Positions 1-16,911 of a stretch of DNA of 64,000 nucleotides are shown here, piece after piece; position 1 is the stretch's first letter, and the number at the start of each line of letters is the position of its first letter. This stretch comes from an uncultured Phycisphaeraceae bacterium (GTDB lineage: Bacteria; Planctomycetota; B15-G4; JADJEK01). The position numbers and the translations under genes were made by a program. The notes under the pieces were generated by a model. It was given only the letters and a program-made list of their open reading frames with translations. It did not search any database and was not told the DNA's origin. The stretch is taken from NCBI GenBank assembly GCA_964649825.1, contig CAZYQW010000032.1, positions 7,877-71,876 on the forward strand, written 5' to 3'.

Positions 1-1114
1 GGCGCGCCGCGCGCACCAGCACGGGCACGGCGACGGCGGCGAGGGCGACGTCCGCGAGCACGCCGAGGTTCCAGACGCCGTCCTGCACGAGCGGCTGGAT
101 CTCGCCGACCGCGTGGTACCAGATCGGGCCGAGGAGCGGGTCGACGAGCCGAAACGGCGCGGTCCGAAGGTCGGAGATCGGCAGGACCGCCGCGCCGGCG
201 ACGAGCCCGACCCCGGCGAAGAGGACGAGCCGAGCCCGAACCCCGCGACCGCGCACGAACCGGGACCCGAGCACGAGCCCGACCGAGATCGCGGCCAGCG
301 CGAGGAGGAACGGGAGGTGCATCCGCGAGAGACGATCGAACTCCCACGTCGCGTGGCTCACGTGGCCGCGCTCGACGAGGATCTCGAACGACGTCACCCA
401 CGCCGCCGCGAGCCCGGCGATGAACGCCGGCCAGCGCGTGTCGCGCCGGCCGAGGATCCAGCCCGACCAGAGCGCGACCATCACCACGCCGATGACGAGC
501 AGGAACTCGAAGCTGATCCAGAGCCCGATCGCCAGGACGGAGCCGAGGATCACCGCCTCGTTGATCGGCTTGCCGTCGCCGCGCGCGATGCGAAGGGTGA
601 ACGCGATCGCCGCGCAGGCGCAGAGGAGCAGCGCGGCGTGGTGGTCGATCCGCGCCGCGAGCCCGTACGAGAGGATCGCCGGCTGCATGACGAAGAGGAA
701 CGCGAGGGCGCGGCGTCGCCCCGGGCTCCACGCCCCGCGAAGTCCCCACGCGAGGACGAGCGCGGCGAGGAGCATCGCCAGCGGATTCGACACGTGCGAC
801 CACAGGACGAGCGCGGCCCGCCGGTCGAGGAACGTGGCGAGCGGCGCCGCTCCGGCGAGGAGGAGCACGTCGACGGGTCGTGTCCAGTGGAGATCGAGCC
901 GGCCGCCGCCCGCGCGACCGAGCCCGCTCGACGCCCACCCATCGCCCGAGTCCCACCACTCGAGCACCCGCGCCAACCGCGTGTACGGATCCGGACCGAT
1001 CAGCGTGCCGAACGAATAGCCACGTTCGAAGAACGGCGGCACGACCGCGAGCAGGGCCGTCCAAACCACGAGGCCGGGCAGGAACCAGCGGGCGCGCTTG
1101 GGACGATCCTCCAT
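1..1114 (-). CDS. Integral multi-TM membrane protein, partial (continues beyond the window start). Begins MEDRPKRARWFLPGLVVWTALLAVVPPFF... Possibly a GT-C-type glycosyltransferase-like membrane protein. Absent from the ORF track because it has no stop inside the window.
   Basis: Reverse-complement translation of 1-1114 is an uninterrupted hydrophobic, TM-rich reading frame with an ATG at 1114-1112. The track ORFs 113..1195(+), 420..1019(+) and 550..942(-) are low-complexity alternate-frame readings of the same DNA. Confidence 0.55.
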   Translation of the reverse strand, partial: MEDRPKRARWFLPGLVVWTALLAVVPPFFERGYSFGTLIGPDPYTRLARVLEWWDSGDGWASSGLGRAGGGRLDLHWTRPVDVLLLAGAAPLATFLDRRAALVLWSHVSNPLAMLLAALVLAWGLRGAWSPGRRRALAFLFVMQPAILSYGLAARIDHHAALLLCACAAIAFTLRIARGDGKPINEAVILGSVLAIGLWISFEFLLVIGVVMVALWSGWILGRRDTRWPAFIAGLAAAWVTSFEILVERGHVSHATWEFDRLSRMHLPFLLALAAISVGLVLGSRFVRGRGVRARLVLFAGVGLVAGAAVLPISDLRTAPFRLVDPLLGPIWYHAVGEIQPLVQDGVWNLGVLADVALAAVAVPVLVRAAR

Positions 1115-1908: not shown

Positions 1909-3207
1909 TCAGAGCGAATCGATCGTGAACGAGCAGCCCTCGGTCGCGTCGACCGCGACGAGGCTCGAGTTCAAGAACAGCCACTGCGTGAAGACGTTCA
2001 ACCCGGTCGGCACGGCGGCCGGGATCGGCAGCGGGATCGCCACGCACCCCGGCGCCGACGGCCCGAGCACGAGGATGAAGCCGGGCGGCGACGGATCGAC
2101 CCAGATCGACGTGCCGAGCCCGAACACGGGCCCGCAGAAGTAGCCGGGGCCGGGGACGCTCGTGTTCACGAGCAGCACCGTGAGCGTGCCCGCCGGCGCG
2201 CCCGAGTACTCGAGGCCGAACGTCGCGCTCGGCGTCGTCGACGCCCCGAACGTGCCGCAGCGCGCCGTCACGCGGTTCGTGCCGTACGTGATCCCGTGCG
2301 ACGCGAACGCGAGCCCGTTCAACGGCGCGGGCGTCGGTGAGCAGGTGATCGGCGAGTAGAACGTCGGCGCGGCGATGGCGCCGGCCACGTCGATCGCCTC
2401 GATGGCGAAGCCGTCCGTCACGAAGAGCGCGGGCCGCCCGGGCGAGAGGATGCGACCCGACCCGGTGTCGAACGCGATCCCCTGGAGCACCGTGCCGAGC
2501 CCGCAGGCGGGGACCGGGAACGACGCGCCGGCCACGCAGGTCGGCAGCGCGATGTTCGTCACGGTGCCGGAGTCGTCGCACGCCCACAGGCTCGCGCTGA
2601 GCGGATCGATGGTGAGGTCGGTCAAGAGGACGCCGGGTGGAACCGGTGCGAGGCACGGCCCGAACGCCAGCACCGCTCCGGCCGCGCTGCACGGCGGCGG
2701 CGGCGGGAGCAGCCCGGCGATGAGCCGGCCGTCGGTGATGTACAGCGTCGGAAAGCCGCCCGTGGCGAAGCCGAACTCGTCGAACCCCATGCCGGTGATC
2801 GGGCCGAAGCCGGCTCCGAGGAGGACGGTCGGAATGCTGAAGAGATCGAGCGGCGTGCATCCGGGTGGAACGCCGCACGGCGTGTCGCCGACGTACACGC
2901 CGATGAGCTTGCCGTCGGTGACGTACACCGCGTCCCGCATCGAGTCGTACGCGACGTCGCCGAGGATGCCGGGCGGCGGCGCGCCGGGCCCCGGCCCGAA
3001 GACGCCGCACATCGGCACGGTGAACGGGCACGCGGTCACGATCGGGTTCGGGGCCCCGCACGCCCCGCCGGGCGCGGCGGTGAACTCCCACAGGAGCCCG
3101 CCTCCCGCGTCGTTGCCGTAGAACGTCTGGCCGAAGAGCGGCGACGCGAACGTCGACGACAGCGCGAGAACGCCAAGGACCAGTCCACGCGAAGAGCACT
3201 GCGACAT
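1909..3207 (-). CDS. Secreted Gly/Pro/Cys-rich repeat protein. Signal peptide MSQCSSRGLVLGVLALSSTFASP. The C-terminus (...IPLPIPAAVPTGLNVFTQWLFLNSS...) is a divergent copy of the shared ~100-aa module described in the findings.
   Basis: The 649-aa track ORF contains an internal ATG at 3207 preceded by GGAGGAG, and the N-terminal signal peptide starts there. The ORF upstream of that ATG is Arg-rich junk. Confidence 0.7.
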   Translation of the reverse strand: MSQCSSRGLVLGVLALSSTFASPLFGQTFYGNDAGGGLLWEFTAAPGGACGAPNPIVTACPFTVPMCGVFGPGPGAPPPGILGDVAYDSMRDAVYVTDGKLIGVYVGDTPCGVPPGCTPLDLFSIPTVLLGAGFGPITGMGFDEFGFATGGFPTLYITDGRLIAGLLPPPPPCSAAGAVLAFGPCLAPVPPGVLLTDLTIDPLSASLWACDDSGTVTNIALPTCVAGASFPVPACGLGTVLQGIAFDTGSGRILSPGRPALFVTDGFAIEAIDVAGAIAAPTFYSPITCSPTPAPLNGLAFASHGITYGTNRVTARCGTFGASTTPSATFGLEYSGAPAGTLTVLLVNTSVPGPGYFCGPVFGLGTSIWVDPSPPGFILVLGPSAPGCVAIPLPIPAAVPTGLNVFTQWLFLNSSLVAVDATEGCSFTIDSL

Positions 3208-3415
3208 GATGATCTCCTCCATCCGGGATGGGTTCCGGAGGGGCCGAACGACGCCGCGTATTCTACCGTCGCCCCCGCGCGCAACAGGGTCGCGGCCGCG
3301 ATGGCCCGCCGCGCCGCGTTCGACGTAGTTCCCGGGAACGGGCCGGCCGGACGCCGCGACCGCCCGATCGGAACCCGGGGGACGACGATCCGAACCGGCG
3401 ACGCAACCCTCCAAC

Positions 3416-3505
3416 GGGGTGGGCCGGATGGCGGGGGTGGCCGGGGTGGCCCGCGTTGGCGGGGTGACCGGGGTGACCCGCGTCGCCGGGGTGACCCGCG
3501 TGGCC
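3416..3505. repeat. 9-bp tandem repeat array, ~10 units alternating GGGGTGRCC and CGCGTYGSC, in the 5' non-coding region of the 1909..3207 gene.
   Basis: Direct reading: ggggtggccggggtggcccgcgttggcggggtgaccggggtgacccgcgtcgccggggtgacccgcgtggcc. Confidence 0.6.
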
Positions 3506-4020
3506 GAGGACATGATCGACGCAACCGTCGCGTTTCCGGCCTTCCTCGCGTCACCGCGGATCCCGACGCCCTCGGCGGGGACCCTTGCGCCCGTGGCAGG
3601 TGCTCGAGCGTGCGAAGGCCGGTGTGGCTCGCGTCGAACCCCTCGTGGGACGGAGGTGCGGCAGGACGATCCGACGATCCGGAGCCCGAGCCCGAGCCCG
3701 AGGACGTCCACGACGTGCTTCCGTACGCCGCGGCGACGCGGAGCGATCACGTCGTGCCGCTCGAAGCTCGAAGCGCCGGTGCATGACGAGGCTCCGGCTC
3801 GCGATGGGGCATGGCGCCGTCGCCGTGATCGGCCATCGGGCTCGCTCGGGGAGCGCATCCTCGGCGACGTCCTCGATGCCCGCCGGCGAGCCGGTGGCGC
3901 CCGGGATGCGTCGAAGAACGGTCGCGTCGCGAACCCCCGCCGCGCCCGGGCTCCGCGACGGCGCTTCGCTCGTCCCTCGCGGCGCCGCGCTCCGCCGCCT
4001 GGAACCGGGAGTCCGGGGGC

Positions 4021-4893
4021 CTACCGGCCCACCGGACTGACCCGCCCCTGACCTCGGGCGAGGCGGAACCCGATGCACGAGTTGCGGTAGCCGGGGTCGA
4101 TCGCGAAGCGGAACGCCGACCGGCAGTACCTCGCGCGATCGAGCCACGAGCCGCCGCGAAGCACCCGTGACGAGCCTTCGAGCGAGAATCGCAGGTCCTT
4201 CCCTTCATCCAACACATCCACCCGATCCGAACACCACTCCCACACATTCCCATGCATCTCGCGCAACCCCCAATCGTTCGAGGGCAGCGTGCCAACGTCG
4301 ACCGTCGCTTCGCGGTACAGGCCCTTCTTGCCGCGCCCGTACGGGCGGTTCCCGTCGTAGTTCACCTGCTCCGTCGTGATCGTTCCGCCGAACGAGAACG
4401 GCGTCGTCGTGCCAGCGCGGCACGCGTATTCCCATTCCTCGTCGCTCGGCAGGCGGAGACTCAATCCGTCGACTTGCTCGTTCACGCGCTCGATGAACTG
4501 GACGGCGTCGTCCCAGCTCACGTTCTCGACCGGATGCTGCGGGCCACGAAACTCGCTCGGGTTCTCGCCCGTCACCGCCTCCCAAAGCGCCTGCGTGACC
4601 GTCGTCTCGCCGAGCCAGAGGCCTTCCGCGATCACGACGCGGCGCTGCACCTCGTCGGCGTATCGCCCCACCTCGTCCTCCGGCGATCCGATCGTGAAGA
4701 CGCCGGGCGGGATCCAGCGCAGCCGATGATCGACCCCCGCCACGCGGAACGCCGCGAAGATGCCGTGGCGATCCTGTCCCCACGCGCGCGCCCACGCGGG
4801 CGCATGGCCCGAGACCAGGGGATGGCGGACCCGCGTCTTCACGGCGGCGAAGGCACCGCGAAGAAGAGCGCCGGCGAGCGTTCGACCGGGCAT
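4021..4893 (-). CDS. Stand-alone FGE-sulfatase / SUMF1-family (formylglycine-generating-enzyme-like) domain protein, 290 aa.
   Basis: Motifs WIPPG.F.MGS, HPV..VSW.DA..F, EW.CRAGT.TPF..G, HGNVWEWC.D and [16 protein letters not shown]....PG.R....GFRLARGQ are present. Confidence 0.8.
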   Translation of the reverse strand: MPGRTLAGALLRGAFAAVKTRVRHPLVSGHAPAWARAWGQDRHGIFAAFRVAGVDHRLRWIPPGVFTIGSPEDEVGRYADEVQRRVVIAEGLWLGETTVTQALWEAVTGENPSEFRGPQHPVENVSWDDAVQFIERVNEQVDGLSLRLPSDEEWEYACRAGTTTPFSFGGTITTEQVNYDGNRPYGRGKKGLYREATVDVGTLPSNDWGLREMHGNVWEWCSDRVDVLDEGKDLRFSLEGSSRVLRGGSWLDRARYCRSAFRFAIDPGYRNSCIGFRLARGQGRVSPVGR

Positions 4894-4986: not shown

Positions 4987-5130
4987 TCATCCAACCCTCT
5001 CCTGCGCTCGGGCGAGGCGGAACCCGATGTTCGAGTTGCGGTTGCCGGGGTCGTTCGCGTTGCGGTACGCCGACCGGCAGTTCCTCGCGTTCGCGTTCCA
5101 CGAGCCGCCGCGAAGCACCCGTTGCGAGCC
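4987..5130 (-). pseudogene. Orphan C-terminal fragment of an FGE-sulfatase domain (...[45 protein letters not shown]). It has no N-terminal catalytic part and is out of frame with the upstream small ORF.
   Basis: Only the last ~45 residues of the domain are encoded. The DNA is a near-copy of the 3' ends of the other FGE domains in the cluster. Confidence 0.5.
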
Positions 5131-5432
5131 TTCGTGACCCTCACCTTGCGCAGGTCGCGCAGCCGCGCGTAGACCGCGAACTCGGGCTCGCTCAGCTTCT
5201 CGCGGTAGTCGACCCTCGGCCTCCTCCCGGCCGCCCCGAACGACGGCGGCGCCGCCGCCGCCCTCGTCGTCGCGTCGACGGTCGTGACGGCGAGGAGCCA
5301 GTGGCTGCACTCGCCCTGCGCGACGAACTGGCGATCGACGGTCGAGACGCGATGGTTGGCGAGGAACGCGTTCAGCTCGGCCTCGGCCTCGGCCGGCTCG
5401 AACGCGGGGATGGTGAAGAAGCGGACGCGCAT
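5131..5432 (-). CDS. Small hypothetical protein ([51 protein letters not shown]...). The true C-terminus is unclear because the track ORF reads through the FGE fragment in an alternate frame.
   Basis: ATG at 5432, 5 nt downstream of the stop of the 1232-aa gene, with a codon-biased frame. The 3' part of track ORF 4839..5492 ([16 protein letters not shown]...) is the alternate-frame reading of the FGE repeat DNA. Confidence 0.35.
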
Positions 5433-5436
5433 CGGA

Positions 5437-8400
5437 TCACTTCCGGCGTTTGCGGCGGCGTGAAGAAGGCTTCGCGGGCGCCTCCGGCGCACGCCGGGAC
5501 TCCGCAGCGGCGCTCGCTCGTCCCTCGCGGCGCCGTGCTCCGTCCTGTTCTCGTTCTTGGCTGGATTCCTGACCCGCCCCCTGACCTCGGGCGAGGCGGA
5601 ACCCGATGCTCGAGTTGCGGGCGCCGGGGGCGTTCGCGAGGCGGGACGCCGACCGGCAGATCCTCGCGAGATCGTTCCACGAGCCGCCGCGAAGCACCCG
5701 CCTCGAGCCCTCGGTCGGATTGCGCACGATCTCTCTCCCCGTCCAGTCCACGCGATCCACGCACCACTCCCAGACGTTCCCGATCATGTCGTACAGGCCG
5801 AACCCGTTCGGAGCCTTCCGAGCCACGGGATGGGTTCCCGCGCGCTTGTGATCGTACTGCTTCTTCGGCCAACCCCGGGAGTCCTCTCCATCCTCGAGCT
5901 CGAAGTCGACCCCGCTGTTCCCGCCGTACCAGGCGATGTCGTCGAGCACCGGATCGTCGTTATCGCCGCGGATCTCGAGCTCGCCCGCATACGTGCTCGT
6001 CGTCGTCCCCGCCCGGCAGGCGTACTCCCAATCGCGCTCGGCCGGCAGATGGCAACGCAATCCCGATGCCTTCGCGACCTTCTCGAAGAACGCCTTCGTG
6101 TCGTCCCAGGTCACCTGTTCGACCGGTCGCGTCGCCGAACGGAAACGGCTCGGGTTCTTGCCCATCACCGCCTGCCAAAGCTCCTGCGTGCACGGCGTCT
6201 CGCCGAGCCAGAAACCGGAGGGAACGATCTCCTCGCGGTGGTGCTCCCAGTCGTACCGCCCCACCTCCCCCTCCGGCGACCCCATCCAGAACCGCCCCGG
6301 CGGGATCCAGCGCATGCGGAACGACACGTCGTTCACCTCGATCTCCACCCAGAGGCCGAACCGGTCGCGGCCGATCGCGCGCGCCCACTCGGGCTTCGTG
6401 ATCGTGCCGGCATGCCAGTCGCCTTGGTCGGTCGCGATCGTGAAGCGACGCGCGACCCGGATCTCGGCGACCGGCGCGGACTCCGCGACGGCGCTCGCTC
6501 GTCCCTCGCGGCGCCGTGCTCCGTCCGGGCCGGTCGCCGGATCCGGCTCCCGACCTGGACCGGACTGCCCCTGACCTCGGGCGAGGCGGAACCCGATGCT
6601 CGAGATGCGGTCGCCGGGGGCGCTCGCGCTGCGGTACGCCGACCGGCAGAACCACGCGGACGCGAACCACGAGCCGCCGCGAAGCACCCGCTCCGAGCCT
6701 CTGGACGGCCCGGTCGGATCGACGGCCCGACCCGGCCCGTACTCGCCGAACCAATCCTGGCACCACTCCCACACGTTCCCGTGCATCTCGAACAGTCCCC
6801 ACGCGTTCGGCGGCAGCGATCCCACGCCCACCGTATGTTCCCGATACCGCCCCTTCGGGCCGTTCGCGTACGGGAAGTTCCCGTCGTAGTTCACGTCGTC
6901 GGGAGTCACGTTCGCGCCGAACGAGAACGGCGTCGTCGTGCCGGCGCGGCAGGCGCGGCAGGCGAACTCCCACTCGGCCTCGGTCGGCAGCCGCAGCTCG
7001 AGATCGGGGATCTCGCAGTTCACGGTCTGCACGAGACGCTGCGCGTCGTCCCAGCTCACCGAGTCGACCGGGCGCTGCGGACCCTTGAAGCGGCTCGGGT
7101 TCTTGTCCATCACCACTTGCCACAGCTCCTGCGTGACCGCGGTGTCGGCGATCCAGTAGCCGCGCGTCAGCGTGACCTCGTGCTGCGTTTCGTCGTCCCA
7201 CCGTTCCGCTTCGTCCTCCGGCGATCCCATCAGGAACGTCCCCGGCTCGATCCAGCGCATGCGCATGCGTACCCCGCGGATCTCGCAATCGGCCCAGATG
7301 CCGAACTCGTCCGCGCCCGACGCTACCGCCCACGAGGGCGTCGTCGACTCCACCCCGCGGTCGTCGAGCTTCGGGAGGGCGAGCGCTCTCGCCGCGTCGA
7401 TCGCCAGGCGCTGCGACGGCGCGCCGGCATCGTGGAGCACGAGCTCCGCGCCCGCCGCGGTGACGATCGCCAGCGCCGAGTCCTGCTCCTCCTCCAACCC
7501 GGCGCGCGGCACGACGAGACGCGGCGTGATCGTCCCCCCGCGTTGCTCGAGACGCCACGCGCGCGGGGCGGCTCGTTCGGGAGGCGTTGGTCTCCATCCC
7601 GGCGGCGGCTCCGCCGTATCGTCGATCGAGCGTTCGTACTTCTCGAACAGGCGCACGAACACGGGGCCGAACTCGTCGTGCGTCTTCAGCGCGGCCGGAA
7701 CGCGCACGCCGACTCGCCGCGACCAGTCGCCGAGGCCGGAGAGTTGCGGTGCATCTCGGGCCGCGACCCGGTTCAGGAACTCCAGCGCGGCCCGCACGTG
7801 CTCGGGGCTCGCGACGTCGGGGTCGCAGGCGAAGAGCGACATCGCCTCTTCGTGCTCGATCTCGCGCGGCGCGGCGGCGTGCCACTCGCGCATCAGGTCG
7901 GCGACGGCGCGCCGCTGCGCGAGCGCTTCTGATTTCCGCTCGACGCGAGCGAGCTCCTGCCAGTCGCGGTCGAGCGAGAGCGCGACGGCCGAGCTGCCGC
8001 CGACGGCGTCGTGCTGCCACGCGTCCACTTCGGTCGACGCGTCCGCCTCGTGCACGGTCAGCCGCAGCCGCACGGACCGCAGGAGCCCGGGCTCGACGCG
8101 CACGGCCGGCGCGAGCAGCCGCAAGAGCCGCAACGCGCGCAACTCGCGCTCGTCGAACGAGATGTCGTCGCCGTCCGATCGATCCCAGACCTGCGCGTTC
8201 CAGAGGTCGCGCGCGAAGCCAGGCCAGCGCGGGGTCGGGGCGGGGATCAGCGCGTGCAGGCGATGCCCGCGGCGCGCGAGCTCTTCGCCCCGGCGCCGCC
8301 ACGCGGCCTGCACGATCGGGCCGGCGTACGCGCCGAGGTCGCCGAGGAGGAGGACGGGGACGTGCGGCGGGGGCGGCCGCGGCGCTCCGCCCTCAGCGCC

Positions 8401-9135
8401 GCGCCCGAGCGGCGCGCCCACCGCGCCGCGCCCGAGCGGCGCGCTCTCCGGGCCGGCGAGGTACGACCACTCGACGAGCGCGCGGTCGCCGAGGAGGCGC
8501 GCGAGCCGCGCGCGGAGGTCGTCCTGATCGTCGTAGAACGGAGTCAGCCGGGGATCGCGGTCGGCGAGGATCCAGACGCGCGGCGCGAGCCCGCGGTCCT
8601 TGCGGCGCGGGATGCGGCGGATCAGCTCGCCGCGGCTCCAGCGATCGACGAGCGCGAGGACGTCGATCTCGCTCTTGTCGCGCGTGCGCGACAGCGCTCG
8701 GCGCAGCCACGTCCAGAGGCGCGGCCACGCGAGGAGCGGCGGCGTAGCGGGCGGCCGCGCCGCGCGCGGCGTGCTGTCCGAGGCGCCGTAGATCGGCTCG
8801 GGCGGACGCGGCGCGGGGATCTCGCGCGGAGCGAAGCCGTAGACGACGTGGAACGGCAGCTCCTCGGGAACGTACTCCGGCTCGACGTCGGGAACGTCGC
8901 GCGCCTCGCGCTCGCCGCGCGGCGCGCCGGCCGGCACCGGCTTCCGATGTTCCGGGGGAGCCGGCCGCGCCTCGAACCCGAGCAAGCGCGCCGCGTCGCC
9001 GAACGCGTCGCCGGTGGCGTCGATCGATACGTCGCGGGACGGGTCCCTGGACGCGTCCGCGAGATCGAGCGCGCGCACGAGATCGGCCCGTCCGAGCGTG
9101 CCATGACCCGCGAAGCTCCGCCCGCGAACGGTCAT
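5437..9135 (-). CDS. 1232-aa protein. The N-terminal ~640 aa are unassigned (possible degenerate vWA-like or effector-associated region, not verifiable by eye). Two tandem FGE-sulfatase/SUMF1 domains follow (aa ~640-890 and ~930-1200). It is the third gene of the TIR-AAA operon.
   Basis: Two full sets of FGE motifs are present: WI.PG.F.MGSPE...W, ..VSW.DA, EWE.ACRAGTTT, HGNVWEWC and RVLRGGSW....CRSA.R....PG.R.SSIGFRLARGQG. The start ATG overlaps the AAA gene stop (ATGA at 9132-9135). Confidence 0.85.
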   Translation of the reverse strand: MTVRGRSFAGHGTLGRADLVRALDLADASRDPSRDVSIDATGDAFGDAARLLGFEARPAPPEHRKPVPAGAPRGEREARDVPDVEPEYVPEELPFHVVYGFAPREIPAPRPPEPIYGASDSTPRAARPPATPPLLAWPRLWTWLRRALSRTRDKSEIDVLALVDRWSRGELIRRIPRRKDRGLAPRVWILADRDPRLTPFYDDQDDLRARLARLLGDRALVEWSYLAGPESAPLGRGAVGAPLGRGAEGGAPRPPPPHVPVLLLGDLGAYAGPIVQAAWRRRGEELARRGHRLHALIPAPTPRWPGFARDLWNAQVWDRSDGDDISFDERELRALRLLRLLAPAVRVEPGLLRSVRLRLTVHEADASTEVDAWQHDAVGGSSAVALSLDRDWQELARVERKSEALAQRRAVADLMREWHAAAPREIEHEEAMSLFACDPDVASPEHVRAALEFLNRVAARDAPQLSGLGDWSRRVGVRVPAALKTHDEFGPVFVRLFEKYERSIDDTAEPPPGWRPTPPERAAPRAWRLEQRGGTITPRLVVPRAGLEEEQDSALAIVTAAGAELVLHDAGAPSQRLAIDAARALALPKLDDRGVESTTPSWAVASGADEFGIWADCEIRGVRMRMRWIEPGTFLMGSPEDEAERWDDETQHEVTLTRGYWIADTAVTQELWQVVMDKNPSRFKGPQRPVDSVSWDDAQRLVQTVNCEIPDLELRLPTEAEWEFACRACRAGTTTPFSFGANVTPDDVNYDGNFPYANGPKGRYREHTVGVGSLPPNAWGLFEMHGNVWEWCQDWFGEYGPGRAVDPTGPSRGSERVLRGGSWFASAWFCRSAYRSASAPGDRISSIGFRLARGQGQSGPGREPDPATGPDGARRREGRASAVAESAPVAEIRVARRFTIATDQGDWHAGTITKPEWARAIGRDRFGLWVEIEVNDVSFRMRWIPPGRFWMGSPEGEVGRYDWEHHREEIVPSGFWLGETPCTQELWQAVMGKNPSRFRSATRPVEQVTWDDTKAFFEKVAKASGLRCHLPAERDWEYACRAGTTTSTYAGELEIRGDNDDPVLDDIAWYGGNSGVDFELEDGEDSRGWPKKQYDHKRAGTHPVARKAPNGFGLYDMIGNVWEWCVDRVDWTGREIVRNPTEGSRRVLRGGSWNDLARICRSASRLANAPGARNSSIGFRLARGQGAGQESSQEREQDGARRREGRASAAAESRRAPEAPAKPSSRRRKRRK

Positions 9136-10094
9136 CGCACCTCGCCGTCCGGGTGCTTTCGGTAGGCGAACTTCGCGATCGTCGCGAGCGTCTCGAGCTG
9201 CTTCTTCTCCGACTTCTCCCGCTTGTCCAGCGCGCGCAGCAGGTCGAGGTACTCTGCCTGTCCGGGCGGCGAGAGACCGCGCTCGCGCACGCCGCGGCGG
9301 TCGTCGACGAGGAGCTCGGCCGCCCGCTCGAGAACCGTCGTCTTCATCTTCGCGAAGTGCGCGGCGCCGCGCTTCACGAGATGCTCGATCAGCTTGGCGT
9401 CGTCGTCCGGGAGCCCGAGCTGCAGCACGAGGCAGCGGCGCAGGAACGCGTCCGGCAGCGCGCGCTCCTCGTTCGTCGTGACCACCACGAGCGGATCGGT
9501 CATGGCCACGATCGGGTCGGCGCGGTCAGGGACGGGAAACGAGCCGTTGCCGAGCGCCTCGAGCAGCCCGTTCGGCACGTCGACGTCCGCCTTGTCGATC
9601 TCGTCGAGGAGGAGGACGACACCGTTCTTCGAATCGCACTCGGGATGCGGCGGCGCCGGCTCCCGCCCGAGCTTGTACTTCTTCGCCTCGTCCCAATCGA
9701 ACGCCCAGAAGAGCGGCCCGGGCCGCAGGAACTTCGCGTGGTCGAGCAGCTCGTGGACGCTCGCGTCGCCCGCCCGCAGCGCCCCGAGCACCTGCGCCTG
9801 CGCCAGCCGCTCGACCGTGTCGACGGTGTAGAGGAGGTCGCGCGCCTCGGTCCGCGCATCGATCACCTTCGCGACGAACGCACGTCGCATCGCGACGGCC
9901 GCCGCCCGCGCGAGCTGACTCTTGCCCGTGCCCGGCTCGCCGCGCAGCAACAGCGGCCGCCCCGCCGCGATCGCCGTGTTGACGGCGTGGACGTGGTCCG
10001 CCTCGAAGACGTGGACCTGGCGGTGGAGCCCGCCGCAGGCGGGGAGTTCTTCGACGTCGCCGGCGGCGCGGTCGAGGTACGGAGAATGGGTCAA
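9132..10094 (-). CDS. MoxR-like AAA+ ATPase (AAA_3/AAA_5 type), 320 aa.
   Basis: Walker A LLLRGEPGTGKSQLARA, Walker B VVLLLDEIDKA, sensor region PLVVVTTNEE...LPDAFLRRCLVLQL. A 3-nt gap to the upstream TIR gene and a 4-nt overlap with the downstream gene indicate an operon. Confidence 0.85.
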   Translation of the reverse strand: MTHSPYLDRAAGDVEELPACGGLHRQVHVFEADHVHAVNTAIAAGRPLLLRGEPGTGKSQLARAAAVAMRRAFVAKVIDARTEARDLLYTVDTVERLAQAQVLGALRAGDASVHELLDHAKFLRPGPLFWAFDWDEAKKYKLGREPAPPHPECDSKNGVVLLLDEIDKADVDVPNGLLEALGNGSFPVPDRADPIVAMTDPLVVVTTNEERALPDAFLRRCLVLQLGLPDDDAKLIEHLVKRGAAHFAKMKTTVLERAAELLVDDRRGVRERGLSPPGQAEYLDLLRALDKREKSEKKQLETLATIAKFAYRKHPDGEVR

Positions 10095-10097
10095 GGG

Positions 10098-11363
10098 TCA
10101 CTCCACGTCGTCGATGAGTTGCTTCAGAAGGTCGGCGACCCGATGGTCGTCCACCGACGAAGTGCCGCAAAGCTCGAGGATCGTCAGATCCTTGAGACGC
10201 GTTCGGATCGCGCTGATCTGCTCGAGGCAGTAGGATCGCGTCTTCTCGTCCATCGCTCCCGATTCGAAAACGATGTACCACGGTCGATCGGTGTCTGTGC
10301 GGTTCGCGATCGCCGCATTGATCTTGTCGAGGTTGGTTTCGCCCCCGAGCCCGATGGACTTGGCCAGGTGTTCGGTCACGTGATCGGCCAGGTTGTCGAT
10401 TCCGGACTCGACGCCGCGGAACGTCAAGTTCCACGGGCTCCTGTCGTAGCGCAGGTTGCCGTAATTCGTCTCACCAACGGGGAGTTTCCCGGGCAGCGCA
10501 CGGAGGGATGCGTCTTTCCCATGAGCAGCGGCGAGAAAGCCCTCCGCTACAGTCTCGGACGGGGTCGGAAGGGCGACCATCAGGTGTCCCCGCGCAATAT
10601 GTTGCCGCAGTTCGTCCACCCCGGCCTCGTCGCACTGGGTCGGGAGGAGCATCAACGCGATCGCCCTCAGGTTGCGACAACAGCGAACGATGTCTTCGCT
10701 CATGCTCGGGAGTCCGTTACGCACCTTGACCAGCGCGATCAGGCTTTCACGCAGCGACTGCCCGAGCAGGCTCTCTACGACCATCCGACAACGCTGGTCC
10801 CGGTTCGCCGCCTCGTACTTTGGCTCCCGGCGATCGAACGCGGTCCAGATCGCATCGTAGAGGTTGCTTGACATAACCAAGCCGATGAGACGCTGCCTGA
10901 CCCGTTCGAGCGCAGCGGCACGCTCGGGTGTACTCTCTTCGCCCTTTGGAGACGCACCTTTCGCACGCTGGGCCACGAGCTTCTTCACGGCTGACAGTAC
11001 GTCGGCTCCGATGTCGCCCTTGCGGTGCAGCGCGACTGCTGCGCGCAGGTATTGCGGCACGTTCCGCGGGGGTTTCTTCACCACGAAAACCGGCAACACG
11101 AACCCCGACGGATGAGGCCAGCGCGACTCAGCCTGGTCCAACTCGGACAGCGAGTAGTTTCCCGTGGCCACGGAGTGCTGGCTGATCAGGAACACGAATA
11201 CGTGGCACCGCTCGATCTCCGCACTGATGAGCGAGTCGTAGTCGAGTCCCGCGAGCAAGCTCGTACGGTCAAAGAAAGTCGTATATCCCGCGCCGGTCAG
11301 CGCGTAGTGAATCCGCTCAGCATCGGACTTGTCTTCGCTCGCATGGCAGATGAACACGTGCAC
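10098..11363 (-). CDS. TIR-domain protein, 421 aa. N-terminal TIR domain: MHVFICHASEDKSDAERIHYALTGAGYTTFFDRTSLLAGLDYDSLISAEIERCHVFVFLISQHS. The C-terminal ~280 aa are of unknown function.
   Basis: Classic bacterial TIR_2 start (VFISHASEDK-like) with conserved acidic/Ser positions. It is the first gene of the three-gene minus-strand operon. Confidence 0.85.
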   Translation of the reverse strand: MHVFICHASEDKSDAERIHYALTGAGYTTFFDRTSLLAGLDYDSLISAEIERCHVFVFLISQHSVATGNYSLSELDQAESRWPHPSGFVLPVFVVKKPPRNVPQYLRAAVALHRKGDIGADVLSAVKKLVAQRAKGASPKGEESTPERAAALERVRQRLIGLVMSSNLYDAIWTAFDRREPKYEAANRDQRCRMVVESLLGQSLRESLIALVKVRNGLPSMSEDIVRCCRNLRAIALMLLPTQCDEAGVDELRQHIARGHLMVALPTPSETVAEGFLAAAHGKDASLRALPGKLPVGETNYGNLRYDRSPWNLTFRGVESGIDNLADHVTEHLAKSIGLGGETNLDKINAAIANRTDTDRPWYIVFESGAMDEKTRSYCLEQISAIRTRLKDLTILELCGTSSVDDHRVADLLKQLIDDVE

Positions 11364-13532: not shown

Positions 13533-14894
13533 GTGAACCGGAAAGCCCACGCATTCTCGACGCTCCTGCTCCTCGCGGCCCTCTCGACGTGCTCCTCCCG
13601 CGACGACGCCACCGGTCCGAACCTGGTCATCGTGACGCTCGACACGTTTCGCGTCGATCGGGTCGGCACGTTCGGGAACGAGGACGGGCTCACGCCGAAC
13701 CTCGATCGAATCGCGGAGGAGGCGACGCGGTTCCCGCGGGCGCTGACGCCGATCGGGACGACGCATCCGGCGCACGCGAGCCTGTTCACGGGGCTCTATC
13801 CGGGCGAGCACGGGGTCCGCTTCAACGGCGACGTGCTGGACGACGACGTGACGACGCTGGCCGAGCTGCTCCGCGACGCCGGCTACCGGACCGCGGCGTT
13901 CGTCGCGAAGAAGAACATGATCGTGCGCGGGGGCCTGCAGCAGGGCTTCGACGTGCGCAGCGACGACGCGCCGGACGGCGGTCCGAGGATCCGGCCGGGC
14001 GACGCGGTCAACGAGCTGGCGCTCGACTGGCTCGACGCCGCCGGCGACGGGCCGTTCTTCCTGTGGGTGCATTACTTCGAGACGCACACGCCGCTGCGGA
14101 ACACGACGTACGCGCGCGAGCGGCTCGGCCGCTACGACGGTCCGCTCAAGAACGGCGCCCCGACCGAGCTCGTCTACGACCTCGGCACCGACCGGCTCCC
14201 TGACACGCCCGCGAACCGTCGCGCGCTCGCGATGCTCTACGACGGCGAGGTCCTCGAGGCGGATCGCCTCGTCGGCGACGTCTACGCGAAGCTCCGCGCG
14301 CTCGGCCGGCTCGACGACACGATCGTCGTCGTCGCGGCCGACCACGGTGAACTCCTCGGCGAGCACGGCGAGGTCGGACACGGCTTCCACGTGCTCGAGC
14401 CGGTGCTGCGGGTGCCGCTGATGATCCGCGAACCGAAGCAGACGGAACCGCGCGACGTCGAACGCCGGGTGTCCCTCGTCGACGTCCTCCCCACCCTCGC
14501 CGAGCTGCTCGGGCTTCCGCCCCCGGAGACATCGGGTCGCTCGCTCGTCCGGCTGCTCCGCGGTCACGTCGGGCCCCCCGTCCCCTACTTCGCGAGCGTG
14601 CGCGCTCCGAACGTGAAGCGCGGCGGCGCCGCTCGTGGTCAGGACGTCCAGACGGTCGCCGTCTACCGCGATCGCTTCAAGCTCGTCCTCACGAGCGAGC
14701 GCGCCGACCTCTTCGACCTCTCCGACGATCCCGGCGAGTTCACGCCATTGACCGGAGAAGCGGCGGCGGCGGTCCGCGAGAAGCTCCTCCCGCTCGCCCT
14801 GGAGCACCGCCGGCGCGAGCGACCGGACGCCTCGCCGATCGCCCTGCCGGCCGACGTCCTCGAGGAGCTGCGCGAGCAGGGGTACATTCGCTGA
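13533..14894 (+). CDS. Sulfatase-like hydrolase/transferase of the alkaline-phosphatase superfamily with an N-terminal signal peptide. At the nucleophile position it has Gly/Thr-Thr-His (PIGTTHPAHASLFTG) rather than the Cys/Ser-x-Pro-x-Arg formylglycine motif.
   Basis: LVIVTLDTFRVDRVG...TPNLDRIAEE...LFTGLYP...AADHGE... matches the sulfatase (PF00884-like) fold. GTG start. Confidence 0.8.
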   Translation: MNRKAHAFSTLLLLAALSTCSSRDDATGPNLVIVTLDTFRVDRVGTFGNEDGLTPNLDRIAEEATRFPRALTPIGTTHPAHASLFTGLYPGEHGVRFNGDVLDDDVTTLAELLRDAGYRTAAFVAKKNMIVRGGLQQGFDVRSDDAPDGGPRIRPGDAVNELALDWLDAAGDGPFFLWVHYFETHTPLRNTTYARERLGRYDGPLKNGAPTELVYDLGTDRLPDTPANRRALAMLYDGEVLEADRLVGDVYAKLRALGRLDDTIVVVAADHGELLGEHGEVGHGFHVLEPVLRVPLMIREPKQTEPRDVERRVSLVDVLPTLAELLGLPPPETSGRSLVRLLRGHVGPPVPYFASVRAPNVKRGGAARGQDVQTVAVYRDRFKLVLTSERADLFDLSDDPGEFTPLTGEAAAAVREKLLPLALEHRRRERPDASPIALPADVLEELREQGYIR

Positions 14895-15012
14895 CGCCTG
14901 TGGCGACCCATCTTACGACTCCTCCCGCCTGACCCGTTGTCGTGGGTCAGAATCTGGAATAGACTCGCACTGCCGTTCCAAGCCTTCTCCTCTCTCCCAG
15001 GTGGAGCTCCCT

Positions 15013-16911
15013 ATGCAGCGTTCTCTCCCGATCGCCGGGCTGGCGATCCTCTGTTTTTCGACGACGCCGGCCACGGCCCAGCAGTTCACGGTCGACGGGA
15101 CGGCGCTTCCCGCGCAGAACATCTGGACCGACGGCGTCGCCTTCTCCGACGTCGACATGGACGGCTTCGTCGACATCCTGTTTGCCAATGGACAGGGTTA
15201 CGGCTCGGGCGGCGCCCTCCAGCAGCACCTCTTCATGAACCACTCGGGAGGAGTTCCCGGGAAGTTCTCCGCCGCGCACGGCAACCTGAACGTCGCCAAC
15301 TTCAACGCGAAGATGGTGATCGCCGAGGACTTCGACAACGACGGCGACCCCGACCTGATGTACGCGCCCGAGGGCCAGTTCCCGAGCCCCAACCAGACCC
15401 CGCGCATGCTGATCAACGACGGCACGGGGATGTTCGCCGATCAATCGGCGGCGCGGCTGCCGGCGGCCGGAATGGCCTCGTTCTGCGTCTGCGCCGGTGA
15501 CACGGACGACGACGGCGACCTCGACGTGGTCTTCACCGACGGAGCGACGTTCGGCGGCGTCGCGACGCAGGCGCGCCTGTACCAGAACAACGGCTCCGGC
15601 GTGTTCAGCAACGTGACCACGACGGCCCTCCCGGCCGACACGTACAACGCGCAGGACGTCACGCTCATCGACTGGGACAAGGACTTCGACCTCGACATCG
15701 CCCTGTCGGGCAAGGGCGCCACCAACAAGCGCGCGCGTCTCTATCTGAACAACGGCGCGGGGGTCTTCAGCATCTCGAACGCGCTCAACGCCCTCGGCAG
15801 CGGCGGTACGTACGAGATCGACTCCGGCGACCTCGACGGCGACGGCGATCCGGACGCGCTCACGCAGTCGATCTCGGGCTCGAGCGAGGGCTGGGGACGC
15901 AACGACGGCCCGACGACGACCGTCCCCGAGTTCACCTTCCCGTCCCCGAACGGCGACGACGACAACGAGATGGCCGGCCTCGACTACGACAACGACGGCG
16001 ACGTCGACGTCTTCGTCGGCTCGCTCGGGAACCGCGAGAAGGCGTATCGCAACAACGGCGGTGGATCGTTCACGAACGTGAACTCGATCATCCAGGCGCA
16101 GGACGACTCGACCCTCGACTTCGGGTTCGCGGACCTCGACAACGACGGCGACTACGACATGGTCACCGGTCAGGGCGAGTCGGGGAACTTCACGAACAAG
16201 GTCTACAAGAACGCTGGTCCGCGCGACAGTCAGCCACCGCGGCTCCTGGCGCTGCAGACGGCGCCGCCGCTCGCCGCGCCGCGGACGCCGTTCCACGTCA
16301 CCCTCCAGGACGCGATCGTCGACGACGGCAAGAGCTACCTGACGGTCGAGTACATCTTCGCGACCGACGATGGCGCAAACAGCACGTCGGGCAGCGGAAC
16401 CGCGCGCCACTCGGGCGGCGGCACGTTCCGTGCGCAGGTCGACACGCAGCTCAGCGTCAACTCGATCTCGCTGGCGTGGATCGCGCGCGATCCGGGTGGC
16501 AACGCGTCGGCGTTCGGGTCGGTCTCGGCCGGCGCGCCGAGCGCGTACACCGACCTCGGCAACGGGCTCGAGGGTCAGCGCGGGGTGCCGGTGCTCCTCG
16601 GCGTCGGCGCGCTCAAGCCGAGCACGCCTGGAATCCTGAAGCTCACGAAGGCGCGAGCGAACTCCCCGGCGTTCCTGCTGGTCGGGACGGCGGCGGGCAA
16701 CGTTCCGTTCATGGGCGGCGTCCTGGTCCCGTTCCCGGTGATCCTGCAGGTCAACCTCGCGACGAACGCAGAGGGCGAGATCACGCTGCCGTTCGTCTGG
16801 CCGGCCGCCGTCCCCTCCGGCACGAACGTCTTCCTCCAGACGCTCATCAGCGACGCGGCCGCGGTGCAGGGGTTCGCGTTCTCGAACGGCCTGCAGATGA
16901 CGTCGCCCTGA
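15013..16911 (+). CDS. Secreted FG-GAP/VCBS-repeat (integrin-alpha-like beta-propeller) protein carrying the shared C-terminal module.
   Basis: Signal peptide MQRSLPIAGLAILCFSTTPATA. Repeated D.D.DGD.D and FG..G motifs. AGGTGGAG RBS. C-terminus ...PFMGGVLVPFPVILQ...NVFLQTLISDAAAVQGFAFSNGLQMTSP. Confidence 0.85.
   Translation: MQRSLPIAGLAILCFSTTPATAQQFTVDGTALPAQNIWTDGVAFSDVDMDGFVDILFANGQGYGSGGALQQHLFMNHSGGVPGKFSAAHGNLNVANFNAKMVIAEDFDNDGDPDLMYAPEGQFPSPNQTPRMLINDGTGMFADQSAARLPAAGMASFCVCAGDTDDDGDLDVVFTDGATFGGVATQARLYQNNGSGVFSNVTTTALPADTYNAQDVTLIDWDKDFDLDIALSGKGATNKRARLYLNNGAGVFSISNALNALGSGGTYEIDSGDLDGDGDPDALTQSISGSSEGWGRNDGPTTTVPEFTFPSPNGDDDNEMAGLDYDNDGDVDVFVGSLGNREKAYRNNGGGSFTNVNSIIQAQDDSTLDFGFADLDNDGDYDMVTGQGESGNFTNKVYKNAGPRDSQPPRLLALQTAPPLAAPRTPFHVTLQDAIVDDGKSYLTVEYIFATDDGANSTSGSGTARHSGGGTFRAQVDTQLSVNSISLAWIARDPGGNASAFGSVSAGAPSAYTDLGNGLEGQRGVPVLLGVGALKPSTPGILKLTKARANSPAFLLVGTAAGNVPFMGGVLVPFPVILQVNLATNAEGEITLPFVWPAAVPSGTNVFLQTLISDAAAVQGFAFSNGLQMTSP

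Follow-up and report, generated by a model that had tools for sequence, protein, structure and literature searches.

A TIR, MoxR-like ATPase and lectin-fold sensor operon of a Phycisphaeraceae bacterium: a predicted member of a described conflict-system class whose retroelement has lost its reverse transcriptase

Building on the framework of ternary conflict systems set out by Kaur et al. (2020; PMC7159879), Doré et al. (2024; PMC10907252) described a MoxR-like variant of these systems that is linked to diversity-generating retroelements (DGRs) of clade 5A, and proposed a sensor-relay-effector model for its loci. In the variation that they term 'DGR 8 / clade 5A', a MoxR-like ATPase gene directly precedes a DGR target whose N-terminal extension is unannotated; another target is short and consists of the lectin domain only, and adjacent genes encode TIR, trypsin or caspase effectors or a Trypco adapter (PMC10907252). 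The present analysis concerns an operon of this architecture in a stretch of 64,000 nucleotides from an uncultured Phycisphaeraceae bacterium (contig CAZYQW010000032.1, positions 7,877 to 71,876; hereafter the window). The operon encodes a TIR-domain protein (the effector), a MoxR-like AAA+ ATPase and a large protein (the sensor) that ends in two domains of the formylglycine-generating enzyme (FGE) fold. It belongs to the published, computationally described class and is not a new system. The original prediction, made from the letters of the DNA, had presented the trio as a combination not recognised as a named defence system, unless it proved to match one already described; it does match one (Doré et al. 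2024, PMC10907252), and the novelty falls because the architecture is already in that paper, within the framework of Kaur et al. The wider claim, an NTPase-centred conflict-type operon with non-catalytic FGE-fold sensors and a TIR effector, is supported. I consider it likely that the operon is the TIR-effector member of a widespread three-component conflict system, made of an effector-adaptor protein, a MoxR-like ATPase and a large cytoplasmic sensor whose tips were written by a DGR that later lost its reverse transcriptase (RT). What is specific to this locus is a TIR effector without close sequence relatives, together with a clean RT deletion that left the template and three variable regions (VRs) in place.

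As in DGR 8 of Thiohalocapsa PB-PSB1, the MoxR-like ATPase gene adjoins the DGR target, in the window by an ATGA overlap. Both DGR 8 and the clade-5A loci share with the window a target that joins a long domain-less N-terminal extension to a C-terminal lectin-fold VR, as well as a short lectin-only second target. The clade-5A loci also have an adjacent effector or adapter gene, which corresponds in the window to the TIR gene 3 nt upstream of the ATPase gene. By contrast, DGR 8 itself carries a helix-turn-helix gene in place of the effector, and the RT that characterizes the clade-5A loci is missing from the window, where a deletion has taken it together with the HRDC half of the accessory gene; the intact relatives, loci L003 and L004, have both RVT_1 and HRDC. 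The likeness to clade-5A loci is one of architecture.

The three genes were read from the sequence as coupled open reading frames (ORFs) on the minus strand, as had been predicted (Table 1). The effector/ATPase junction is TGA ccc TTG, a 3-nt gap, and the ATPase and sensor genes overlap by ATGA; in an alignment, the TTG start of the ATPase lines up with Met1 in 22 homologues. Pfam bears out the predicted domain assignments, with TIR_2 at residues 3-98 of the effector (E 2.4e-15), AAA_5 in the ATPase (E 2e-13; Walker A GEPGTGKS, Walker B LLLDEIDKA) and two FGE-sulfatase stretches in the sensor (E 8e-84), the first at residues 626-853. No Pfam family covers residues 1-625 of the sensor, in line with the predicted lack of an assignment for this half. 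The trio and the short lectin-only gene are four full-length ORFs with conserved catalytic motifs, and no membrane-like segment or signal peptide was found in any of the four products; the receptors are therefore predicted to be intracellular. The effector gene differs in composition from its partners (GC/GC3 0.618/0.78, versus 0.708/0.93 for the ATPase gene and 0.727/0.89 for the sensor gene, in a window of ~70% GC), which suggests that the effector was exchanged relatively recently and that its gene arrived later than the partner genes.

The sensor tips carry the signature of a DGR. A 144-nt repeat is present in four copies: one closes each of the two FGE modules, one closes the lectin-only gene and one lies in a non-coding spacer. 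Each coding copy differs from the spacer copy at 14-16 of 27 adenines versus 3-5 other positions (the Fisher tests of Table 1 were made on ungapped matches), and two non-adenine differences mark a 3' boundary shared by the VRs, which read GAGGTCAGGGG where the template reads GAGCGCAGGAG; this boundary may correspond to the IMH/IMH* of DGRs. The adenine specificity of the mismatches identifies a DGR template repeat (TR) with three VRs, which, to judge from this pattern, have been written from the local template by adenine-specific mutagenic retrohoming. The TR is 86% identical to the template of L003, which directly follows the L003 RT gene. Among the features that define a DGR, adenine-confined mismatches and a VR in a C-type-lectin/FGE-fold target are present in the window, and an intact accessory protein and RT are absent.

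The absence of the RT can be traced to a single junction. In L003 and L004, the gene order is sensor, HRDC accessory gene, RT (RVT_1), template and short target. When the L003 and L004 accessory proteins were used in tblastn against the window, only their residues 1-94 found a match (E ~1e-18); the HRDC domain of the L003 protein is at residues 83-149. In a blastn comparison, window 5423-5144 corresponds to L003 5079-5352 and window 5140-5003 to L003 6637-6774. About 1284 bp of L003 are thereby missing in the window, namely the 3' half of the accessory gene with HRDC and the whole RT gene, and no RT-like ORF or sequence was found in the 64-kb window. Comparison with the intact locus thus points to a ~1.3-kb deletion that removed the RT and half of the accessory gene. 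Since the RT is deleted, the current sensor specificities would be fixed unless a paralogous DGR acts in trans. The retroelement had gone unseen in the original prediction, and the locus is now read as a DGR target with one template, three VRs and a deleted RT. A toxin-antitoxin remnant had been placed in its surroundings; none was found, and the small ORF after the sensor gene is the first ~94 codons of the DGR accessory gene. The 'FGE fragments' reported there are FGE-related as stated, but they are not fragments: they are the intact 290-residue lectin-only gene and the non-coding TR.

Just 3' of each VR lies a 49-nt repeat (6478-6526, 5497-5545 and 3949-3997). Within the sensor gene, its two copies share 96% identity and encode DGARRREGRASA; identity is 69% for the copy that follows the short target. 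This repeat may be a DGR target-recognition element; compared with shuffled sequences, it showed no excess folding as a DGR hairpin (z -0.11).

The best solved match of the FGE modules is itself a DGR variable protein, TvpA (2Y3C, E 3.5e-29). Aligned with bacterial FGE, the modules keep a single cysteine of the catalytic pair, as does TvpA; the first has given way to another residue, at a hypervariable position. Judged by these alignments, the FGE domains are DGR-type lectin-fold sensors and non-catalytic. With TvpA of Treponema denticola and Mtd of a Bordetella phage they share the FGE/C-type-lectin fold, a VR at the C-terminal tip and an AAC-rich template. TvpA and Mtd are surface or tail-fibre proteins, whereas the modules of the window stand in tandem at the C terminus of a predicted intracellular, ATPase-coupled protein that is tied to a TIR effector. 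Their doubling, which had been thought unusual, is not so: many homologues are 1150-1250 residues long and have two modules.

Identity between the sensor and its L004 homologue is 39% in the N-terminal region and 52% in the lectin module. Residues D192, D203, R353 and E430 of the N-terminal region are invariant and Asp266 is nearly so. No Pfam or NCBIfam family was found in this region in any of 57 members, and a profile search against the sequences of the Protein Data Bank (PDB) returned nothing significant. Two motifs of its partner module, DRSxR and LGDLG (Table 1), presumably resemble a degenerate MIDAS site. At its C terminus the sensor bears a polybasic tail, RRRKRRK (window 5437-5470); the L004 homologue ends in KKRKKKR (L004 13700-13734). 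For L003, the closest relative, gene calling yields two overlapping ORFs of 586 and 590 residues in place of a single sensor ORF (L003 1570-5065), which reflects either a frameshift or a genuine split between the N-terminal region and the lectin modules.

Homologues of the ATPase number more than 6000 at ~55% identity, with Sorangium and Polyangiaceae among the best matches. K58, D164/E165, N208 and R219/R220 (Walker A and B, sensor 1, arginine finger) are invariant in the alignment. An AlphaFold 2 model computed from a 23-sequence alignment has a pLDDT of 90, and Foldseek places it nearest to NorQ, also as part of the NorQ-NorD vWA complex, and to CbbQ (E ~1e-10, target-normalised TM 0.67-0.71). 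By sequence profile, the nearest solved relative is the midasin AAA domain; Pfam bpMoxR scores 19 bits against a cutoff of 27. With its core motifs and a predicted fold nearest to MoxR-type ATPases, the protein has the features of a MoxR-class AAA+ ATPase. NorQ-NorD and CbbQ-CbbO, the closest solved folds, resemble the window in that a dedicated partner is encoded nearby. These pairs remodel metabolic enzymes, and their partners differ from that of the window, which shows no vWA signal and carries hypervariable receptors. NCBIfam contains a pair of families, NF047784 (MadB, AAA-type ATPase) and NF047783 (MadC, VWA domain). Both identities were rejected, since the ATPase scores 70 bits against a MadB cutoff of 475 and just one sensor N terminus matches MadC (E 0.22); no literature on the two names was found.

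To place the effector, the gene family was surveyed across genomes, one per species. ATPase relatives occur in at least 558 stretches, of which 80 loci were kept, from Polyangiaceae, Magnetococcales, Competibacter, Methylococcaceae, Acidobacteriota, Azospirillum, Planctomycetota and others. Directly after the ATPase, 76 of the 80 loci encode the sensor N-terminal region, and a gene of 400-550 codons directly precedes the ATPase gene in nearly all of them. The called-gene neighbourhoods of three ATPase homologues illustrate the arrangement: Trypco2 and a trypsin-like protease, the ATPase, a 920-960-residue protein ending in FGE-sulfatase, an HRDC protein and RT, and a short FGE-sulfatase protein. 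A Pfam scan of 73 upstream proteins (72 from other loci and that of the window) found Trypsin_2 in 26, TIR_2 in 16 including the window, GT4-conflict, SEFIR and CHAT in 3 each, PNP_UDP and Metallophos in 2 each, and SIR2_2, TCAD9, EAD5 and bDLD3 once each. With an iterated TIR profile, the set of TIR, ATPase and sensor was recovered in 15 of the 72 other loci, from at least 5 phyla. The predicted co-occurrence of the three genes thus holds across phyla. Collections of plasmids and viruses contain almost no members of the family: 2 distant plasmid matches and 1 viral fragment were found. In Sorangium sp. So ce1151 (L002 11145-11785), a small ORF and a PIN-domain gene, which look like a toxin-antitoxin pair, stand between the ATPase and sensor genes.

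The C-terminal parts of the upstream proteins are related. A hidden Markov model (HMM) for which the final 270 residues were taken from each of the 72 upstream proteins of other loci, whatever their N-terminal effector, matches residues 188-418 of the window effector (E 1.3e-21) and no other ORF of the window below E ~1. Since a profile of the other proteins recognises that of the window, effectors with differing N-terminal domains have a common C-terminal adaptor domain, and the upstream position is that of an exchangeable effector on a constant adaptor. Queried in full or with its C terminus alone, the TIR protein retrieved only itself from 5.8 billion proteins and 1.84 billion representatives, and its relatives surfaced only through gene neighbourhood and profiles. 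TIR residue Glu74 is aligned with the glutamate of NWTEYEL in the solved bacterial TIR 7UXR, and all 14 TIR effectors aligned from the family have a glutamate at this position; it is a candidate for the catalytic glutamate of a TIR NADase. A comparison with PADLOC, suggested at the outset, was run with the PADLOC-DB v2 models (Thoeris, CBASS, pAgo-TIR etc.): no named system was matched, the hits being weak domain-level matches to TIR or P-loop domains of at most 28 bits, with none for the sensor.

The DGR accompanies only part of the family. Among 57 loci with at least 6 kb of downstream sequence, RT was found in 23, an adenine-mismatch template in 22, both in 21 and neither in 34. Besides the window, a template without RT was seen in one of the 57, L022, from a metagenome-assembled genome of candidate division KSB1, which has an adenine-mismatch template and no RT within 10 kb and may be a second independent RT loss.

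Two kinds of described systems help to define what is particular to this family. In VMAP-ternary systems (Kaur et al. 2020, PMC7159879), as in the window, the order of third component, MoxR and partner is strict, the third component bears a variable N-terminal effector, with TIR among the options, and FGE-fold domains, often DGR-linked, are fused to the C terminus of the 3' component. The window family differs in that none of the 73 upstream proteins matches VMAP-C, and the window ATPase has neither of the Trp-rich N-terminal motifs WxhapG and PsWRxa, the 46 residues before its Walker A strand being free of Trp. As for the vWA domain of the VMAP 3' component, profiles gave no signal of it in 57 sensors. 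The nSTAND/NACHT-FGS systems (Kaur et al. 2021, PMC8195603; Doré et al. 2024) also combine an effector, TIR among others, with an NTPase switch and a DGR-diversified lectin sensor, but the NTPase of the window is a separate AAA+ MoxR-like subunit and not a fused STAND module.

A plasmid of Streptomyces sp. NBC_01176 (NZ_CP108601; L087 4819-12685) shows the same core in another setting, in the order SLATT, TIR, MoxR, a 318-residue protein and TPR-CHAT. Its ATPase is 40% identical to that of the window, and in both loci the gene upstream of the ATPase encodes a TIR protein. The 318-residue protein matches the first ~175 residues of the sensor N-terminal profile (hhalign probability 98.4%, E 4.7e-15), indicating that this segment of the sensor is a separable ATPase-partner module and that FGE modules are one of several possible C-terminal attachments. 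The plasmid differs from the window in that the partner module has a gene of its own and is followed by TPR-CHAT in place of an FGE-fold component. Effector, ATPase and partner would thus form a core that reaches beyond FGE-type sensors. The C terminus of the L087 TIR protein was considered as a further copy of the adaptor domain and was rejected, the profile match not being significant.

Table 1. Features of the operon and its retroelement (window positions, or residues where marked aa)
Feature	Position	Strand	Remarks
Effector gene	10098-11363	-	421 aa, GTG start
Effector domains	TIR aa 1-~130; C-terminal adaptor aa ~188-418	-	Pfam and family HMM
MoxR-like AAA+ ATPase gene	9132-10094	-	320 aa, TTG start
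Sensor gene	5437-9135	-	1232 aa, ATG start
Sensor regions	N-terminal region aa ~125-615 (~490 aa), then two FGE/C-type-lectin-fold modules		each module ends in a variable region
N-terminal partner module, aa 125-329	8149-8763	-	motifs DRSxRLxPF and VLVLGDLG
VR1, end of first lectin module	6557-6700	-	16/19 mismatches on template adenines; Fisher p 9e-10
VR2, end of second lectin module	5567-5710	-	14/19 mismatches on template adenines
Truncated DGR accessory gene	5144-5432	-	first ~94 of 179 codons; HRDC domain lost
Deletion junction	5141-5143	-	template side resumes 3 nt past accessory remnant
Template repeat (TR)	4999-5132 (spacer copy of 144-nt repeat: 4988-5131)	-	non-coding, 8 AAC codons
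Short lectin-only second DGR target	4021-4893	-	290 aa; Pfam FGE-sulfatase E 1e-42; carries VR3
VR3, in lectin-only gene	4034-4177	-	14/19 mismatches on template adenines; Fisher p 6e-9

The following mechanism is proposed, in line with the model that Doré et al. (2024) put forward for such loci. A lectin-fold tip would bind an invader-derived molecule, and the N-terminal partner module would relay the resulting change to the ATPase hexamer; the precedent for this step is the action of NorQ and CbbQ on their vWA partners NorD and CbbO. The ATPase would then, in an ATP-dependent manner, remodel or assemble the effector held by its C-terminal adaptor domain. Once activated, the TIR domain would cleave NAD+, causing depletion or producing a signal, and the infected cell would be arrested or killed. 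Indirect support comes from the sister loci, where the small gene beside the protease is Trypco2/Pepco, which has been shown experimentally to be a protease-activated pore (PMC12642450); it is on this account that the upstream genes are read as the killing arm.

Several points weigh against this mechanism. I infer defence, NADase activity and the direction of signalling for the whole family alike. No vWA or other known domain was detected in the 57 sensor N-terminal regions with Pfam, NCBIfam and PDB profiles, and a single-sequence model of the sensor N terminus has a pLDDT of 37 and is unusable; the analogy with NorQ/NorD is therefore drawn from the ATPase side only. VMAP-C is absent from the Pfam matches (E <= 0.001) of the 73 upstream proteins. 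The linkage to a DGR is not obligatory, given the 34 of 57 loci with neither RT nor template nearby. Having lost its RT, the system may be in decay and no longer active. Finally, the polarity proposed by Kaur et al. is the opposite one, in which the third component senses and the FGE-fold domain is a neutralising effector (PMC7159879).

This last point deserves to be followed through. With the polarity reversed, the TIR-adaptor protein would sense or signal, the ATPase would activate or release the large protein, and the lectin modules would neutralise invader molecules. Such a model was proposed for VMAP-ternary systems with FGE-fold domains on the 3' component (PMC7159879), and the gene order, third component, MoxR and partner, is the same. 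What makes it unlikely here is the content of the upstream position, which is filled by classic killing or signalling modules, TIR, trypsin-like protease, CHAT and SIR2, swapped on a constant adaptor in the pattern expected of effectors. Furthermore, a Trypco2/Pepco gene stands just upstream of many of the trypsin-like proteases, Pepco being the pore that proteases activate (PMC12642450), and hypermutable lectin tips are receptors in every DGR studied.

It is likewise improbable, and to a similar degree, that the trio is a decaying, non-functional remnant in which loss of the RT marks relaxed selection. Such an outcome would accord with the deletion of RT and half of the accessory gene, with the rarity of a template without RT (1 of 57 other loci) and with the degenerate DGR loci that have been documented elsewhere (PMC10907252). 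However, the four protein ORFs are full-length with their catalytic motifs conserved, translational coupling is kept, and more than half of the family loci have no local DGR and still keep the trio, so that the RT is not needed for the effector arm.

A role outside defence is less probable still. Here the operon would serve self/non-self or developmental signalling in an aggregating bacterium, the receptors recognising kin or environmental ligands and the TIR domain making a nucleotide signal. Lineages that aggregate or are multicellular are enriched for systems of this kind (PMC7159879, PMC10907252), the relatives recovered in the survey belong to Polyangiaceae, Magnetococcales, Competibacter and Methylococcaceae, and a related MoxR-vWA pathway passes threat signals to transcription (PMC13622651). 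But the receptors, lacking a signal peptide or membrane-like segment, would be intracellular, and the interchangeable effectors are typical abortive-infection modules. The original prediction's alternative of catalytic FGE domains with an intact Cys pair, maturing a sulfatase encoded 4 kb away, can be set aside, as far as sequence can show, despite the Pfam match (E 8e-84) and a PF00884 'Sulfatase' gene at 13533-14894, because the first Cys of the catalytic, copper-binding pair is replaced at a hypervariable site, leaving a single Cys, while the neighbour lies on the opposite strand beyond three unrelated genes and has T-H-P-A-H where formylglycine sulfatases have C/S-x-P-x-R and is therefore no formylglycine client.

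The preferred reading remains that of a conflict system with a DGR-written sensor and a TIR effector. A bolder version of it, which I put forward tentatively and regard as possible rather than probable, is that the family, in at least 558 species, is a separate MoxR-centred immune class with its own partner module and adaptor, neither recognisably vWA nor VMAP-C, in which a DGR-written intracellular receptor acts on exchangeable death effectors. The window might then represent a 'germline fixation', in which useful specificities were written first and the diversifier was then lost by deletion, so that what remains is an innate-type TIR sensor.

Among the neighbouring genes, that at 13533-14894 (+), with T-H-P-A-H at the active-site motif, probably encodes a Thr-nucleophile enzyme of the alkaline-phosphatase superfamily and not a true sulfatase. 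The gene at 15001-16911 (+), which has internal 51-nt repeats at 15571-15783, encodes an FG-GAP/VCBS-repeat protein (FG-GAP_3 E 8e-35) and seems to have no connection with the operon. On the other side, a 649-residue ORF (1909-3858, -) with no Pfam family contains an internal signal-peptide-like stretch, MSQCSSRGLVLGVLALSSTFASPLFGQ; it may encode a secreted protein whose true start lies further in.

The locus is compact, with four genes for predicted soluble proteins and a TIR read-out that is easy to assay, and it is a candidate for the first functional test of its class. Because it has three written specificities and a known template, it could make a useful construct for testing whether it is the VRs that determine what sets off the effector. 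Its clean RT deletion documents how such loci become fixed. The effector-adaptor domain and the separable ATPase-partner module, both absent from Pfam and PADLOC, can be used for annotation. In the family as a whole, DGR-diversified lectin sensors wired to NTPases and death effectors would come closer to hypermutating immune receptors than any other bacterial analogue proposed so far.

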